Assembly: GCA_035536915.1 (NCBI GenBank)
Contig: DATLNE010000020.1
Location: 15,044 to 79,043 of the forward strand
DNA: 64,000 bases
Direction of reading: 5' to 3'
DNA from: Acidimicrobiales bacterium
GTDB taxonomy: Bacteria > Actinomycetota > Acidimicrobiia > Acidimicrobiales > JAHWLA01
The notes below the pieces were generated by a model. The model saw nothing but the letters and a program-made list of their open reading frames with translations. It was not told where the DNA came from and made no database searches. Positions 16,988 to 38,121 of the stretch are shown here, piece by piece. Position 1 is the stretch's first letter, and every line of letters begins with the position of its first letter. The position numbers were made by a program, and so were the translations under genes.

Positions 16988-17853
16988 GCGGCTGCCAGTC
17001 GGTCGAAGATGGGCTTGATGCCGCGAGCGAAGCCCACCGGGTCGGACCCGTACCCCAAGTGGTCGCCGGCGAGTTCCACGAACTCGATCCCCAGCTCGTC
17101 GGCCACAACCTTGCCCGTGCGGTTGTAGTACGCGTCACCGGTGTCGAGTCCGCCTGCGATAGCCATGGGTACGCGAGCGGCCCGCAGCGCCTCGTAGTCG
17201 GGTACGAAGCTTGAGATGGCCCGCATCTCGTAGCGCATGAAGAACTCGATGTTCGCCTGCATGCGCGCGACCAGCTCGGCAATCTCGGGGCCCAGCACCG
17301 GCACCGCTCCTGCGTCGGCTTCGCTTGTGTCGGCATCGCCTCCCGTCCGTGCCGTCGAACCCAGTCCTGCATGTTCCATGAACCGGATGTAGGCCTCCAT
17401 GACCTGGTCCTTCTCGAGCAATGCATCGAGTTCGTCGTGAAAGGCGAGCAACTCGGCAGCCTCGGGAAGGATGCGCAACACAGGTGCCTCATGGGCGACC
17501 AGCCCGACCACTCGACTCGGGTGTCGGGCCACGAGGTCGAAGCCGATGACCGCACCGGCGCTGCTGCCGAACGCGAGGGCGGCGTCGAAGCCGTTGGCGT
17601 CGAGGACCGCTACGGCATCCGCGCTCTGCTCCTCGGGCCGCAACGTCGTAGGAGGACCGTGCAGCGGGCTTCGCGAGTTGCCGCGCCGGTCGTAGGTGAG
17701 GACCGTGTAGTCGGCGGCCAGGACATCGGCGAGGAACGTGTAGACGCCCGCGTCGCCTCCCCCGCCGGAGATGAGCAGCAGGGCCGGGCCGTCGCCGCGC
17801 CGCTCGAAGTAGATGTCGGCCCCGTCGCTCTTGGCCAGGCCGGTCTCGATCAT
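16972..17853 (-). CDS. alpha/beta hydrolase
   Basis: (MA)MIETGLAKSDGADIYFERRGDGPALLLISGGGGD, with nucleophile elbow FGSSAGA. The ATG at 17853 makes an ATGA overlap with the PhyH stop. The ATG at 17859 is also possible. Confidence 0.85.
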   Translation of the reverse strand: MIETGLAKSDGADIYFERRGDGPALLLISGGGGDAGVYTFLADVLAADYTVLTYDRRGNSRSPLHGPPTTLRPEEQSADAVAVLDANGFDAALAFGSSAGAVIGFDLVARHPSRVVGLVAHEAPVLRILPEAAELLAFHDELDALLEKDQVMEAYIRFMEHAGLGSTARTGGDADTSEADAGAVPVLGPEIAELVARMQANIEFFMRYEMRAISSFVPDYEALRAARVPMAIAGGLDTGDAYYNRTGKVVADELGIEFVELAGDHLGYGSDPVGFARGIKPIFDRLAAAQPST

Positions 17854-18647
17854 CGCCATGCGTCCGCCCCCTTGAACGGGAAGTGCTCGCCTTCTACATA
17901 GGCGGGCTTCGGTTGGTACTCGTTGACCCCGGGGTCGCCGCGGAAGTGGAGGGCGCTCACGAACGGCCCGCCGTCGTCGGTCAGGATCTTGGTGCTCGTG
18001 GGGATGTACCGGATCGTCAGCCCGCAACGCCGCTTGGGCGAGTTGTTCGGCTTCGAGCTGTGGAGGATGTTCGGGTGGTGGACCTCGCAGTCACCGGGCT
18101 TCAGCTCGATGTCGACGGCGGTGCTCTCGTCGAACTCTGCCGTCGTCTCAGACTGGAACACGTTGTCGGTGTCCTGGCGGATCCGAAACTCGTGAGCCGG
18201 GAGTGTGTGCGAACCCGGAATCACCCGAAGGCACCCGTTCTCTGTCGTCGCCTCGTCCACCGCGAGCCAGATGCTGACGACCTCCATCGGCTCCAAGGGC
18301 CAGTAGGCGGCGTCCTGATGCCAGAGCACGGCTTGCCCGTCGAAAGGCGGCTTGGAGATGTAGTGCGACGCGAACAGCGCCAGGTCCGGGCCGACGAAGA
18401 GCTCGGCGATGTCGAGCAGCCGATCGTCGCTCACCAGCCGCACCCAGAACGGATCCTCCTTGACCAGCCATTGGCCGAGGTGTTCGGGCCGAACGTCGGG
18501 GTTGCGCGCTTGCACCCAGTCGATGTGTGCGGCGGCCTCAGCCATGAGGTCAGCGTCGAGCACGTTGCGGAAGATCGCATAGCCGTCGCGGTCGAACTTG
18601 GCGAGCGTGTCGTCTCGGGTGGTCGTGGGGGTCGACATGGAACTCAT
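17850..18647 (-). CDS. phytanoyl-CoA dioxygenase (PhyH) family Fe(II)/2-oxoglutarate dioxygenase
   Basis: The ATG at 18647 gives MSSMSTPTTTRDDTLAKFDRDGYAIFRNVL. The HxD facial triad (LWHQDAAYW) and the distal His (VHHPNILHSS) are present. The 892-aa track ORF is a spurious upstream extension. Confidence 0.85.
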   Translation of the reverse strand: MSSMSTPTTTRDDTLAKFDRDGYAIFRNVLDADLMAEAAAHIDWVQARNPDVRPEHLGQWLVKEDPFWVRLVSDDRLLDIAELFVGPDLALFASHYISKPPFDGQAVLWHQDAAYWPLEPMEVVSIWLAVDEATTENGCLRVIPGSHTLPAHEFRIRQDTDNVFQSETTAEFDESTAVDIELKPGDCEVHHPNILHSSKPNNSPKRRCGLTIRYIPTSTKILTDDGGPFVSALHFRGDPGVNEYQPKPAYVEGEHFPFKGADAWR

Positions 18648-18710
18648 CGTCACACGTCGCTGACGAGCCGGCTTCAACGGGTGCTGCACATAGTTGTACT
18701 GTTTTGACCT

Positions 18711-19565
18711 GTGTTGGTCCGCCTGGGCTTCACCGACGTGGCTGCGGGGAAGCCATACCATGCCGCTTTGGTGGTGATGGGTGGATCGCGTGAGTCCCGA
18801 GTCGACTCCCACACCCATCTCGATTTCTACGAGCTGATGGTGGTCGTGGCCGGTAGCGGCACGCATCGCGCCGGGACCGATGTCTACGCATTGGAACAGG
18901 GCGATGTCGTCGTCGTACGCCCGCACGACGTGCACACGATCCTTGCCCCTCCCAACGGCAACCTGCACTTTGTGAACATCGCGATTCCAGCGGCCACATG
19001 GTCGAGCGTGCTCGCCGTCGGGGGCCTCCCGGCGTCGCTCTGGGACCGGGAGCGCAGTCCCGTGCACGTGCGGCTCGGCGCGGGCGACGTCGCGACAGCG
19101 GTGGCCGCCGCATTGGAAGCAGTCGGCCAGTACCACGCCCGACCTGACCCGCTTGACGTGCTCCGCCTGTTGGGAACCGTGCTCCCGGCTCTCGTACACC
19201 GTCCGGACGATCGCGGGCCGATCGCACCCGACTGGCTGGTACGAGCCTGCGCGGCAATGGAACAACCGGACGAGATGCGCGTCGGCGTGCCTCGGTTCGT
19301 CGATCTCGCAGGCGTGAGCCATGCCCACCTCGACCGCTCGATGCGAACGCACTTCGGCACCACGCCCACCGACTTCGTCAACGAGTTGCGCCTCCAACGC
19401 GCGGCCCGACTGCTCGTCACCACGGCAGTCCCCGTGGGCACCATCGCCACCGAATGCGGCTTCAGCACGATCTCGTACTTCTGTCGGCGGTTCCGGGAGC
19501 GCTTCGGCCGGTCGGCTCGTGACTTCCGAAACGAAACCCGTCGGGCCGCTGCGCCCGGCGTCTGA
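18711..19565 (+). CDS. AraC-family transcriptional regulator (cupin sensor + HTH)
   Basis: N-terminal cupin-like domain (HTHLDFYELMVVVAGSGTH). C-terminal double HTH (AGVSHAHLDRSMRTHFG...IATECGFSTISYFCRRFRERFG). It is divergent from the PhyH gene. Confidence 0.9.
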   Translation: MLVRLGFTDVAAGKPYHAALVVMGGSRESRVDSHTHLDFYELMVVVAGSGTHRAGTDVYALEQGDVVVVRPHDVHTILAPPNGNLHFVNIAIPAATWSSVLAVGGLPASLWDRERSPVHVRLGAGDVATAVAAALEAVGQYHARPDPLDVLRLLGTVLPALVHRPDDRGPIAPDWLVRACAAMEQPDEMRVGVPRFVDLAGVSHAHLDRSMRTHFGTTPTDFVNELRLQRAARLLVTTAVPVGTIATECGFSTISYFCRRFRERFGRSARDFRNETRRAAAPGV

Positions 19566-19573
19566 CGTTCGAA

Positions 19574-36504: not shown

Positions 36505-36506
36505 GC

Positions 36507-37082
36507 TCAGGGCGCCGTAGCAGCCACAGCGTCGTCGTCGACCACTGTCGTCTCCCGGTTGATCTCCGGATCGGTGAAGACGTCGAGGTCGTCGCGACTC
36601 TGGGTCGAGAACTCCGAGACGATCGCCCCTTCCGGGCCGGCTTGAAACCAGTGCAGCGTGTTCGGCGGGACTGTGTGCTGGTCGCCAGGCTGCAGGACGA
36701 CCTCGTGCCACACGGTGTAGGCACCTTTGTCAGCACGTGGCGGACGGCATACAGGGTCGGGCGTGGGGGCTCCCTCGGTGTAGAGGTAGACGGTGCCCTT
36801 GCGGCACCGGAAGGTTTCCTCCTTGCCCGGCGTGCCGCCGAAGGGCGGGTGCCGGTGCTCCGGGCAGGTCTGGCCCGGGAACAACACGATCTCCTTGGCA
36901 CACACCCGGTCCGTGTTGACGTACACGACGATCTCGAGGCCCGTCTCGTCGAGCTCGGAGAGCCCGCAGTCGACGACTTCGATGGCGTCCTTCTCGGCGG
37001 CGGTGAGCACGAAGCCCGCCTCCTCCAGCATCTGCGCGGCCCGGGATTGAGCGGCGCGCGCTTCCTTCTTGGCAACTACCAC
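36507..37082 (-). CDS. D-lyxose/D-mannose family sugar isomerase (cupin)
   Basis: Metal-binding cupin core [29 protein letters not shown] and [17 protein letters not shown] chose the GTG at 37082 (AGGAGG 11 nt upstream). The track start at 37202 overlaps the kinase gene. Confidence 0.8.
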
Positions 37083-37116
37083 GACGTGCGATTCCTCCTG
37101 TGCGATGTCCGTCAGG

Positions 37117-38121
37117 TCACCCGGTGGTGACCGAAAGCTCCTCGAAGGGCGGCAGGCGGTCGAGGCCGCCGACGCGGGCCGCGGCTGCATCGGCAGCCAC
37201 ATCGAGCGCGTCGCTCGGGCTCATGCCGGCAGTGATGCCGTAGAGCAAACCCGCGGCGGCCGCATCGCCTGCCCCGTTCGTACTGACCACCTCGACGGCA
37301 CGAGCCGGCGCGTGGAGCGCGCGATCGCACCACTGCTCGGCCGCCCTCGCCAACAGCGGACCCGCCCGCTCCATCCGTTCCCGTCCCGCCGTGCGCAGGT
37401 ACAGGCCGGCCGCGCCCGCCTTGACCATCACGACGGCGGCCCCGGCCGCCACCAAGTCGTCGGCCCACTGTGCAGCGGATCGGGCAGCACCCAGCGCGGA
37501 GGCGAGGTCGTCGACGCTGGGCGCGAACACGTCGACAAGCGGCAGCGCGGCGCGCAGCAACGCTTCCCAGTCGTGGCGGGCAGCCTGCGAGCTCGGGTCG
37601 ACAGTCGCCAGGTCCACCGACGTGGTGATGCCACGAGCGCGGGCTCGATCGAGCAATGCCGCCAACTGGCGACCGCCCTGCTCGTAAAGGCACGGCAGGA
37701 GCGTCGGGTAGCCGAGGTGGAGCACGTCGATGCCGGTCAGGTCGAGGTGGCGACCGTCGAAGTGGGCGTTCGCTCCCACGTGGTGCCAGAACGTCCTGTC
37801 GGCACCGGGAGGCTGCACGACGATCGAGTACGACGTGTTGCATCCCGGCAACGGGCGAATCCCGGTGGCATCGACGCCCTGCGTCCGCAGGAGGGAGCGC
37901 AAGAGCCGGCCGAGCTCGTCGTCGCCGACGTCTGCCGCCAGGCGAACGTCACCGCCGAGCGCAGCGAGGTCGAGCCCAGTGTTCGCCACGCACCCGCCCG
38001 GCCGCAGCGTCAACGGGCCCACGTCGAAAAGACGCCCGGGCAGAAGCTCGGCAGGACGTTCGTGGCGCGGCATCAGGTCGATGCACACGTGTCCAGCCAC
38101 CAGCGTCCGCACGAGGGCCAT
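37117..38121 (-). CDS. PfkB-family carbohydrate kinase
   Basis: [17 protein letters not shown]-terminal ATP/anion-hole motif [11 protein letters not shown]. The ATG at 38121 or the GTG at 38112 (leaderless model) may be the start. The track TTG at 38133 lies inside the operator. Confidence 0.85.

Follow-up and report, generated by a model that had tools for sequence, protein, structure and literature searches.

The stretch of DNA analysed here (64,000 nucleotides of contig DATLNE010000020.1 from an Acidimicrobiales bacterium; below, the window) carries on its minus strand a long array of co-directional genes, many of which are predicted to act in beta-oxidation of branched acyl-CoAs. The G+C content of the window is about 70% and raw lists of open reading frames (ORFs) there are rich in shadow ORFs; genes were therefore called from a third-position GC frame plot, inspection of start codons and ribosome sites, and domain scans with Pfam and NCBIfam. 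Called in this way, the minus-strand run is unbroken and head-to-tail from 38121 down to 20615, and consists of the following 16 genes, listed in order of their reading direction:

37117-38121, minus strand: PfkB-family sugar kinase (Pfam PfkB, 118 bits), with an alternative leaderless-type GTG start at 38112
36507-37082, minus strand: sugar isomerase of the D-lyxose/D-mannose family (cupin)
35476-36504, minus strand: F420-dependent luciferase-like oxidoreductase of the TIGR03617 (MSMEG_2256) family (NCBIfam, 482 bits, cutoff 278)
34989-35399, minus strand: HadA-like hot-dog subunit, predicted to be non-catalytic (Pfam FAS1_DH_region, NCBIfam HadA)
34576-34992, minus strand: HadB-like subunit, predicted to be the catalytic subunit of an (R)-specific enoyl-CoA hydratase
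33401-34579, minus strand: alpha-methylacyl-CoA racemase (MCR/AMACR) with the CoA-transferase family III fold
32482-33381, minus strand: MFE-2-type (3R)-hydroxyacyl-CoA dehydrogenase, the short-chain dehydrogenase SDR1
31037-32458, minus strand: dead HMG-CoA-synthase-like (HMGCS-like) domain (residues 1 to about 330) fused to DUF35
29844-31037, minus strand: thiolase of the SCP2/archaeal-ACAT type (NCBIfam PRK06157, 592 bits, cutoff 403)
28656-29840, minus strand: acyl-CoA dehydrogenase A (ACAD-A), ChsE4/Tcur3483/PimC-large-like
27391-28659, minus strand: acyl-CoA dehydrogenase B (ACAD-B)
24585-27347, minus strand: large ATP-binding LuxR-family (LAL) regulator, 920 amino acids (Pfam AAA_16 and GerE)
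23583-24560, minus strand: second MFE-2-type short-chain dehydrogenase, SDR2
22759-23583, minus strand: crotonase-family enoyl-CoA hydratase of the PRK08290 subfamily (NCBIfam, 380 bits, cutoff 280)
21986-22762, minus strand: crotonase-family enoyl-CoA hydratase ECH1 (best model EchA19, 189 bits, cutoff 400)
20615-21982, minus strand: GlcD-like FAD-linked oxidase/dehydrogenase (Pfam FAD_binding_4 and FAD-oxidase_C; NCBIfam glcD, 424 bits, cutoff 568)

From 38121 downward, the spacings at the junctions are 34, 2, 76, -4, -4, 19, 23, -1, 3, -4, 43, 24, -1, -4 and 3 nucleotides: six junctions overlap by 1-4 nucleotides and the largest gap is 76 nucleotides. The original prediction, which was read from the DNA letters alone, had described these gaps and overlaps correctly, and its two crotonases and GlcD-like FAD oxidase agree with Pfam and NCBIfam. 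It had, however, counted 17 genes instead of 16 and left the LuxR/LAL regulator out of its list. Nor does the run begin at 38121, as it supposed, since minus-strand genes go on upstream in the same direction to 47679.

Judged from homology, the core of the array (35399-27391) would encode all activities needed for one full (R)-specific cycle on 2-methyl-branched acyl-CoAs. The racemase is the clearest of its members. It matches the M. tuberculosis MCR structure 1x74 over residues 4-358 with 375 bits (E 5e-111) and Far with 343 bits, while true CoA-transferases, the next non-racemase family, reach 134 bits at best and BbsE/F only 69-75 bits. His126 and Asp156 form the catalytic pair of M. tuberculosis MCR. 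They align with the motifs GHDIDY (His136) and GDFGGG (Asp166) of the window protein, and both residues are thus retained. The expectation of an AMACR-like member of family III is borne out by these data.

SDR1 is closest to the dehydrogenase of eukaryotic MFE-2 from yeast, fly, rat and human (2et6 415 bits, 3oml 262 bits, 1gz6 and 1zbq 257 bits each), compared with at most 131 bits for FabG-type enzymes and 98 bits for BbsD, and it has the catalytic Y-x3-K motif (YAAAK at residue 165). The structure comparison covered SDR1, and SDR2 was placed through its 45% identity to SDR1 and through domain scans. Two dehydrogenases of the MFE-2/Hsd4 type had been predicted, and the second can be kept as a paralogue of the first.

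The two hot-dog proteins, 136 and 138 amino acids long, are encoded by genes that overlap by 4 nucleotides. The D-x-N-P-x-H motif of hydratase-2 enzymes is found on the HadB-like subunit only (GDFNPIHHD at residue 38); at the corresponding place the HadA-like subunit has DNPAY, in which the motif histidine is missing. By these motifs, the pair is one catalytic and one non-catalytic subunit of a putative heterodimer. A split MaoC pair was rightly recognized in the original prediction, but it is nearer to HadAB than to ChsH1/ChsH2: in the comparison with known structures the HadB-like subunit scores 73 bits to HadB, 35 to the MFE-2 hydratase and 31 to ChsH. Neither of the hot-dog proteins carries DUF35.

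Both acyl-CoA dehydrogenases find their best structural matches in Tcur3483 (143-154 bits) and M. tuberculosis ChsE4 (124-147 bits), with 154 bits to 6wy9 and 147 bits to 4x28_A for ACAD-A. The best NCBIfam model for both is the large subunit of pimeloyl-CoA dehydrogenase (pimC_large, 211 bits for ACAD-A), below its cutoff. In FadE enzymes of the alpha2beta2 type, adjacent subunits are strongly diverged, only one of them keeps the FAD-binding and catalytic residues, and the tetramer holds two FAD. EPxAGSD and NGQKVWTS are flavin motifs, and the glutamate of "NER" is the catalytic position in IVD, LCAD and ChsE4; ACAD-A and ACAD-B each retain all three. The two proteins are 42% identical, and among ACAD-A orthologues from 80 genomes, 69 have no adjacent same-strand ACAD and the other 11 have a much more divergent one. 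An alpha2beta2 heteromer of the FadE type, which had been proposed for this pair, is thus unsupported by the sequences, although the adjacency itself is confirmed and the 4-nucleotide overlap of the genes is compatible with coupled translation.

That both ACADs match steroid enzymes best brings in one rival explanation, in which the array is a side-chain locus for sterols or bile acids (of the Chs/igr type) and the genes for ring degradation lie elsewhere in the genome. MCR, a dehydrogenase of the MFE-2/Hsd4A type and an EchA19-like crotonase are, together with such ACADs, the set of the first cholesterol side-chain cycle, and less than half of the contig (64 of about 144 kb) falls within the window. 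The thiolase, on the other hand, speaks against this rival. Its nucleophilic Cys85, H288-D-C-F and G-H338-P motifs are all present, and its best structural matches are of the archaeal type (4yzo 191, 7yvy 174 and 6esq_A 173 bits), followed by SCP2-thiolase (154), BbsB (127), PhlC (94) and Ltp2 (6ok1, 65 bits). Ltp2-type aldolases have YDHF with a catalytic tyrosine and have lost the nucleophilic cysteine (PMC12329534). With Cys85 and HDCF kept and 65 bits to Ltp2 against 173-191 bits to archaeal-type enzymes, the candidate function of an Ltp2-type retro-aldolase was rejected; of the suggested SCPx/Ltp-type thiolase, the SCP2/archaeal part stands and the Ltp2 part falls. The thiolase is not of the FadA5 type either.

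Other features of the window point away from steroids as well. No P450, Rieske, TetR-type or steroid-ring domains (KstD, Ksh, Hsa-type) were found among about 60 window ORFs scanned, as had been noted for the ring genes; the regulators are of LacI, LAL and AraC types. ECH1 scores far under the EchA19 cutoff, and the uptake system encoded in the window is of the LIV-type ABC class and not Mce4. We therefore regard a steroid locus as quite unlikely. Compared gene by gene with the mycobacterial system for the cholesterol side chain (ChsE4-ChsE5, EchA19, Hsd4A, FadA5 and Mcr; in the igr operon ChsE1-E2, ChsH1-H2 and Ltp2), the window shares ChsE4-like ACADs, MCR, an Hsd4A-like dehydrogenase, an EchA19-like crotonase, a split MaoC pair and a DUF35 domain adjoining a thiolase-fold protein. 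It differs in lacking cyp125 and ring-degradation genes nearby, in LacI and LAL regulation in place of KstR, in having two alpha-like ACAD paralogues, in the location of DUF35 on a dead HMGCS and not on ChsH2, and in a true thiolase in place of a retro-aldolase. The description of the array as igr-like thus had to be given up (no P450, a true thiolase, DUF35 off the hydratase and hot dogs nearer to HadAB), in keeping with the accompanying remark that its layout is unlike that of the igr and kst regulons.

The gene in front of the thiolase had been noticed as a DUF35-containing partner, and it does contain DUF35, with a zinc ribbon (C360/C363/C374/C377) followed by an OB fold. What had gone unmentioned is the HMGCS-like domain that precedes it. 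This domain aligns end to end with PhlA (75 bits) and archaeal HMGCS (74 bits), and the DUF35 part scores 31 bits. At the positions of the catalytic Glu, Cys and His of HMGCS it has Thr69, Val101 and Ala221. None of the 121 close relatives in our alignment has any of these catalytic residues, and neither the cysteine nor the full triad occurs in 100 distant full-length representatives, down to about 30% identity. The four cysteines of the zinc ribbon are kept in all 121 close relatives and in 88-89 of 101 sequences of the distant set. With the triad absent family-wide, the function of a working HMG-CoA synthase (in mevalonate synthesis, ketogenesis or beta-branching) was rejected. We also observed that Cys426 (RFQCEM), in the OB-fold part of DUF35, is present in 120 of 121 close homologues and in only 33 of 101 sequences of the distant alignment.

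The family of this fusion is large: 7968 of 8000 scored candidates match at E <=1e-10, which puts it at no fewer than about 8000 sequences, and in a library clustered at 50% identity there are 645 clusters at E <=1e-30. At every informative locus the thiolase gene comes directly after the fusion gene; among loci with 9 kb or more of sequence this was so for 45 of 49. By its motifs, the window pair is a hybrid of an intact archaeal-like thiolase and a fused, inactive HMGS-like/DUF35 partner. The HMGS-like domain, the ACAT-like thiolase and DUF35 are encoded together as in the known tripartite complexes, and homology suggests that they may assemble physically and have a CoA-binding site in common. 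From the examples of PhlACB, MucABC and the archaeal thiolase/HMGCS/DUF35 complex, we infer that the fusion protein serves as a scaffold or CoA-binding subunit of the thiolase and not as a second enzyme.

In the acyltransferases PhlACB and MucABC, the HMGS-like subunit is devoid of the E-C-H-N tetrad and the thiolase-like subunit has lost HDxF (PMC12960953); in Sulfolobus, a thiolase/DUF35 pair associates with a MaoC dehydratase and an SDR reductase (bioRxiv 2024.07.05.601840). Fusions of DUF35 with thiolase-superfamily domains have been on record since 2010 (PMC2954200). The window resembles these systems in that all three modules are co-encoded, the HMGS-like part is without Glu/Cys/His as in PhlA and MucA, the zinc ribbon is intact, and the thiolase is nearest to the archaeal ACAT group. 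It differs in the fusion of the HMGS-like part with DUF35, in a thiolase that keeps HDxF, and in its context, which is beta-oxidation and not mevalonate or polyketide synthesis.

These likenesses could also mean that thiolase/DUF35, SDR and MaoC proteins carry out biosynthetic, ACP-independent chain elongation, similar to a proposed archaeal fatty acid synthase or to PhlACB. In Sulfolobus, proteins of these families assemble through DUF35 into a stable synthase complex (bioRxiv 2024.07.05.601840), the bacterial HMGS-like/ACAT/DUF35 complexes characterised to date are biosynthetic acyltransferases (PMC12960953), and PhlA is the protein closest to the HMGCS-like domain. Catabolism is nevertheless indicated by the uptake transporter, the racemase, the pair of FAD-type ACADs and the two acyl-CoA synthetases; the array is without an enoyl-CoA reductase, the thiolase retains the HDxF lost in PhlC and MucB, and polyketide synthase or other natural-product genes are absent nearby. 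A biosynthetic role therefore seems highly improbable to us. No study of a member of the fusion family in a degradative context was found in the literature.

Conservation was examined with two anchors: ACAD-A (80 species genomes with orthologues of 52-69% identity) and the fusion protein (80 metagenome loci). The ACAD-A genomes are mostly of Acidimicrobiia, with Kribbella, Actinomadura, Amycolatopsis, Thermomonospora, Pseudonocardia and Saccharomonospora among the others. The commonest neighbour of ACAD-A is a FACL2-like acyl-CoA synthetase, present within 10 kb on either side in 31 of 80 genomes and usually adjacent and divergent. The cultured Kribbella sp. NPDC051586 (locus L058) has orthologues of SDR1 (65% identity), HadB (71%) and HadA (66%), divergent from ACAD-A (64%), a LAL regulator (39%), and also MCR, a classical thiolase, an acyl-CoA synthetase and a LIV ABC system. 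In the metagenome loci L031 and L064, MCR, SDR1 and ACAD-A follow serially on one strand; in L031, an acyl-CoA-synthetase-like gene separates MCR from SDR1. Also from metagenomes, locus L107 combines a homologue of the F420 oxidoreductase (56% identical) with ACAD, SDR1, HadB, HadA and the thiolase cassette, and loci L161-L166 contain MCR, the thiolase cassette, HadA/B and SDRs.

The LAL regulator has 18 relatives at E <=1e-30. Of the closest informative ones, one (L167) adjoins an SDR1 orthologue and an ACAD gene; another (L168) lies among genes for an acyl-CoA synthetase, a crotonase, a thiolase, a luciferase-like (LLM) protein, MCR (54%) and ACAD. Because its relatives elsewhere sit with such beta-oxidation genes, the LAL protein is probably a pathway-specific regulator. 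The first three genes of L167 were considered as HadA/HadB and rejected, as they encode membrane or secreted proteins.

A number of observations weigh against a single pathway. The whole 16-gene array is reproduced in none of the 80 ACAD-A genomes and none of the 80 fusion metagenome loci, where only modules recur, and at least two further core genes within 10 kb of the ACAD-A orthologue are found in only 9 of 80 genomes. The thiolase cassette stands without any beta-oxidation neighbour in 13 of the 49 loci of at least 9 kb, by our reading of their genes, and the thiolase, 68-85% identical across distant genomes (51-67% for the fusion protein), may be a housekeeping acetoacetyl-CoA thiolase. 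The pairs of ACADs and SDRs, as well as ECH1 and the FAD oxidase, score below the curated NCBIfam cutoffs. In the scan of the array for promoters and terminators, counts equalled those of shuffled sequence, and no signal above background delimits transcription units. Finally, the sugar genes at the head of the array may be merely adjacent, with read-through into it.

These facts lend themselves to a mosaic of unrelated co-directional units, in which sugar genes, general genes of fatty-acid metabolism and a regulator happen to adjoin a housekeeping acetoacetyl-CoA thiolase cassette and no single pathway is served. In other genomes synteny extends to modules and not to the array, the strongly conserved thiolase cassette is often found alone, and loci with the core hardly ever have the distal crotonases and FAD oxidase as well. 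Against a mosaic stand the six overlaps and short gaps throughout the array, and the fact that the core contains each activity of a stereochemically coherent cycle exactly once. Moreover, core families are found together again in Kribbella L058, L107 and L161-L166, SDR1 lies directly before the thiolase cassette in L005 just as it does in the window, and LAL relatives also adjoin genes for MFE-2-type SDR, ACAD and MCR. On balance, we find the mosaic rather doubtful. Because modules recur in other Actinomycetota and the whole array does not, with about a quarter of the cassette loci devoid of a beta-oxidation neighbour, the array is best described as an idiosyncratic assembly of recurrent modules.

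The following features outside of the array are relevant to its regulation and possible substrate:

12988-14688, minus strand: second acyl-CoA synthetase (best model MbcS, for branched short-chain acids, 388 bits, below cutoff)
16972-17859, minus strand: alpha/beta hydrolase, its gene overlapping the PhyH gene (start inspection, domain scans)
17850-18647, minus strand: generic PhyH-superfamily dioxygenase (domain scans, PDB comparison)
18711-19565, plus strand: AraC regulator (frame plot, domain scan)
19593-20618, plus strand: Zn-dependent dehydrogenase, Zn-ADH (frame plot, domain scan)
38129-38140, no strand: predicted LacI-type operator GACAACGTTGTC, 8 nucleotides upstream of the PfkB ATG and followed by a -10-like hexamer TACAAT
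41562-43118, minus strand: acyl-CoA synthetase, FACL2-like (NCBIfam PRK12406, 753 bits, cutoff 701), about 10 nucleotides downstream of the GH2 gene
43129-45654, minus strand: GH2 glycosidase with a mannosidase-type Ig domain (Pfam)
46846-47679, minus strand: DeoC/LacD-family aldolase, which heads the co-directional run and lies under a plus-strand shadow ORF (46969-48816)
47776-48816, plus strand: LacI-family regulator, divergent from the aldolase
49754-57879, minus strand: LIV-type ABC uptake system (MFS-ATPase fusion, Peripla_BP_6 binding protein, double permease-ATPase fusion)

The operator is a perfect palindrome of 12 bp that occurs in four perfect copies in the window. In addition to the one before the PfkB gene, copies lie just upstream of GH2 (45679-45690), between DeoC and the divergent LacI gene (47702-47713), and upstream of the ABC operon (58051-58062). 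A copy with one mismatch (15316-15327) lies upstream of the operon of SnoaL and acyl-CoA-synthetase genes. In none of 100 shuffles did the number of matches with up to two mismatches reach the observed count. By their positions, the copies together would define a LacI-type regulon of glycosidase, sugar, acyl-CoA synthetase, ABC uptake and array genes. Besides the array, the operator would control the operon of GH2 and acyl-CoA synthetase, the DeoC aldolase with the GFO/IDH/MocA oxidoreductases, and the LIV-type importer. As had been proposed, sugar genes head the array behind an operator: the PfkB kinase, for which no NCBIfam equivalog was found at cutoff, and the isomerase, which matches 7nzo with 240 bits (E 1.6e-70) and 2y0o with 223 bits.

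Several side observations concern the same genes. On the minus strand, operators 38129 and 15316 are both followed by AATTACA(A/G)T, 7 further nucleotides and a start codon (GTG at 38112 and ATG at 15299), a layout that suggests a shared leaderless-type promoter/operator module (38100-38128 and 15297-15315). The MbcS-like synthetase shares its operon behind the one-mismatch operator with a SnoaL-like protein. Beside the same copy, on the plus strand (15354-16987), a xylose-isomerase-like TIM-barrel gene precedes a PRK05864-like crotonase gene and overlaps it by 4 nucleotides, a further place where sugar-type and acyl-CoA-type genes meet. The genes of the ABC system (49754-51943, 52437-53948 and 54886-57879) have unusual fusions of MFS with ATPase and of a double permease with ATPase. 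Around the thiolase cassette of L005 and L006 there are fused MFS-ATPase/LIV transporters of the same types, whereas the LIV system of Kribbella L058 is unfused. A plus-strand group (58195-62121), divergent from the transporter, combines a Zn-dependent dehydrogenase and a PNPOx-like flavoprotein with two esterases, one a type-B carboxylesterase (333 bits) and the other of the Abhydrolase_3 type; these could possibly provide ester-cleaving steps for the substrate of the array.

Upstream of the array, the gene order is UvrD-like helicase, GFO/IDH/MocA oxidoreductase, acyl-CoA synthetase, GH2 glycosidase, second GFO/IDH/MocA oxidoreductase and DeoC aldolase. The UvrD-like helicase/AAA protein (761 amino acids, 38155-40440, minus strand) is placed amid the catabolic run and directly before the PfkB operator; its 41%-identical homologue adjoins the ACAD-A orthologue in Actinomadura parmotrematis (L071). 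An Rfam scan of the whole window gave zero matches.

At the other end of the array, the coding part of the minus-strand ORF 17850-20528 reaches to about 18650 and is the PhyH gene, and beyond this point the ORF is a shadow of plus-strand genes, according to the frame plot and domain scans. Another shadow ORF of the window (5835-8483) was recognized from the frame plot and Pfam. The PhyH gene had been described as translationally coupled to a hydrolase gene and next to the array. The coupling is supported by a real ATGA overlap at 17850-17853 (start inspection), but the two genes form a separate unit, divergent from AraC, and AraC and Zn-ADH, both on the opposite strand, separate it from the array. 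Its membership in a phytanic-acid set does not hold either. The protein scores 55 bits to human PHYH, below the unrelated monooxygenase 6zyk (87), EvdO2 (64), PHYHD1 (60) and ectoine hydroxylase (56), and it matches no NCBIfam model at cutoff.

Apart from PHYH, the comparison with peroxisomes withstood scrutiny: the racemase, the MFE-2-type SDR, the hydratase-2 motif and the SCP2-type thiolase all belong to the peroxisome-like set that had been proposed, while a specific PHYH does not. Peroxisomal oxidation of pristanic acid and bile-acid intermediates employs AMACR, ACOX2/3, D-bifunctional protein (MFE-2) and SCPx, and beta-oxidation of pristanic acid follows the same stereochemical logic as the core of the window. 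Counterparts are the racemase, the MFE-2-type (3R)-dehydrogenase, the hydratase-2 hot dog and the HDCF thiolase. In contrast to the peroxisomal pathway, the first step in the window belongs to ACADs and not to oxidases, hydratase and dehydrogenase are separate polypeptides with the hydratase as a putative HadAB-like heterodimer, and the thiolase is paired with dead-HMGCS::DUF35. An SCP2 domain is absent, and the PhyH protein is not PHYH-specific.

The bbs operon for benzylsuccinate (BbsEF, BbsG, BbsH, BbsCD, BbsAB) offers another parallel: it serves an alpha-substituted acyl-CoA with a family-III CoA-transferase fold, SDRs, an ACAD and a hydratase, and its SCP2-type thiolase likewise has DUF35 as a partner. 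The window differs in that its family-III protein is a racemase, its hydratase is a hot dog and not a crotonase, and it comes from an aerobic actinobacterium. Breakdown of pristane in Mycobacterium is known to depend on Mcr. In actinomycetes, Mcr is required for catabolism of methyl-branched isoprenoids (PMC8538451, which cites Arenskotter 2008). The isoprenoid systems (rubber in Gordonia, pristane in Mycobacterium) share with the window the racemase family, actinobacterial hosts and the expected class of substrate. They differ from the window in being defined genetically by mcr alone, and no clustered (R)-specific cycle with a DUF35-partnered thiolase was found for them in the literature. No paper that links Acidimicrobiia with an MCR-type racemase was found either.

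The best reading of these comparisons is that the array works like the peroxisomal and mycobacterial side-chain systems and yet is not an igr operon. No core enzyme proved to be of the straight-chain FadB/FadA type, which the original prediction had named as a refuting outcome. We consider it fairly probable that the locus encodes (R)-specific beta-oxidation of 2-methyl-branched acyl-CoAs with the help of a racemase, as a module placed in a LacI regulon and equipped with its own LAL regulator. Gene order and spacing, family membership, kept or lost catalytic residues, the operator copies and the recurring modules are observed directly. Co-transcription, complex formation, stereochemical course, regulator targets and substrate are what we infer in this model. 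Starting with a branched acyl-CoA, the MCR/AMACR racemase would supply the (2S) epimer, from which the two ChsE4/PimC-like ACADs would form enoyl-CoA. The HadA/HadB-type heterodimeric hydratase would hydrate it to the (3R)-alcohol, and the MFE-2-type dehydrogenase would oxidise the alcohol. The resulting 2-methyl-3-ketoacyl-CoA would be cleaved by the SCP2/archaeal-type thiolase, with dead-HMGCS::DUF35 as its obligate partner. SDR2, the two crotonases and the GlcD-like FAD oxidase might then perform accessory steps.

The substrate class would be methyl-branched or isoprenoid, and one reading of the regulon is that the substrate is a glycosylated branched acid or a glycolipid. Uptake, deglycosylation and sugar use, activation with CoA and branched-chain beta-oxidation would then be coupled at this locus under one operator type. 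It is tempting to extend the model further: the dead HMGCS became the scaffold of a beta-oxidation metabolon, recruiting the MFE-2-type SDR and HadAB as DUF35 does in Sulfolobus; the archaeal-type thiolase adapted to bulky 2-methyl-3-ketoacyl-CoAs; the metabolon was brought into a LacI sugar regulon; and the substrate is a glycosylated (for example beta-mannosylated) branched or isoprenoid lipid taken up by the MFS-fused LIV ABC system. That all of this holds jointly is unlikely.

Taken together, the most original element of the locus is the thiolase partner, a dead HMGCS::DUF35 throughout its family. With its place beside a conserved thiolase, the HMGS/ACAT/DUF35 architecture, recently recognised in mevalonate synthesis of archaea and antibiotic synthesis of bacteria, is probably used in catabolism as well. 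The combination of a sugar-type regulon with acyl-CoA genes leads to a testable hypothesis, namely catabolism of glycolipids or glycosylated acids. Acidimicrobiia are abundant in soils and waters, and ordinary beta-oxidation is unable to process methyl-branched and isoprenoid acids. If our assumptions are true, then uncultured Acidimicrobiia hold a self-contained route for such acids, derived from phytol, pristane, rubber or lipid breakdown products, and this route would bear on the turnover of recalcitrant lipids.

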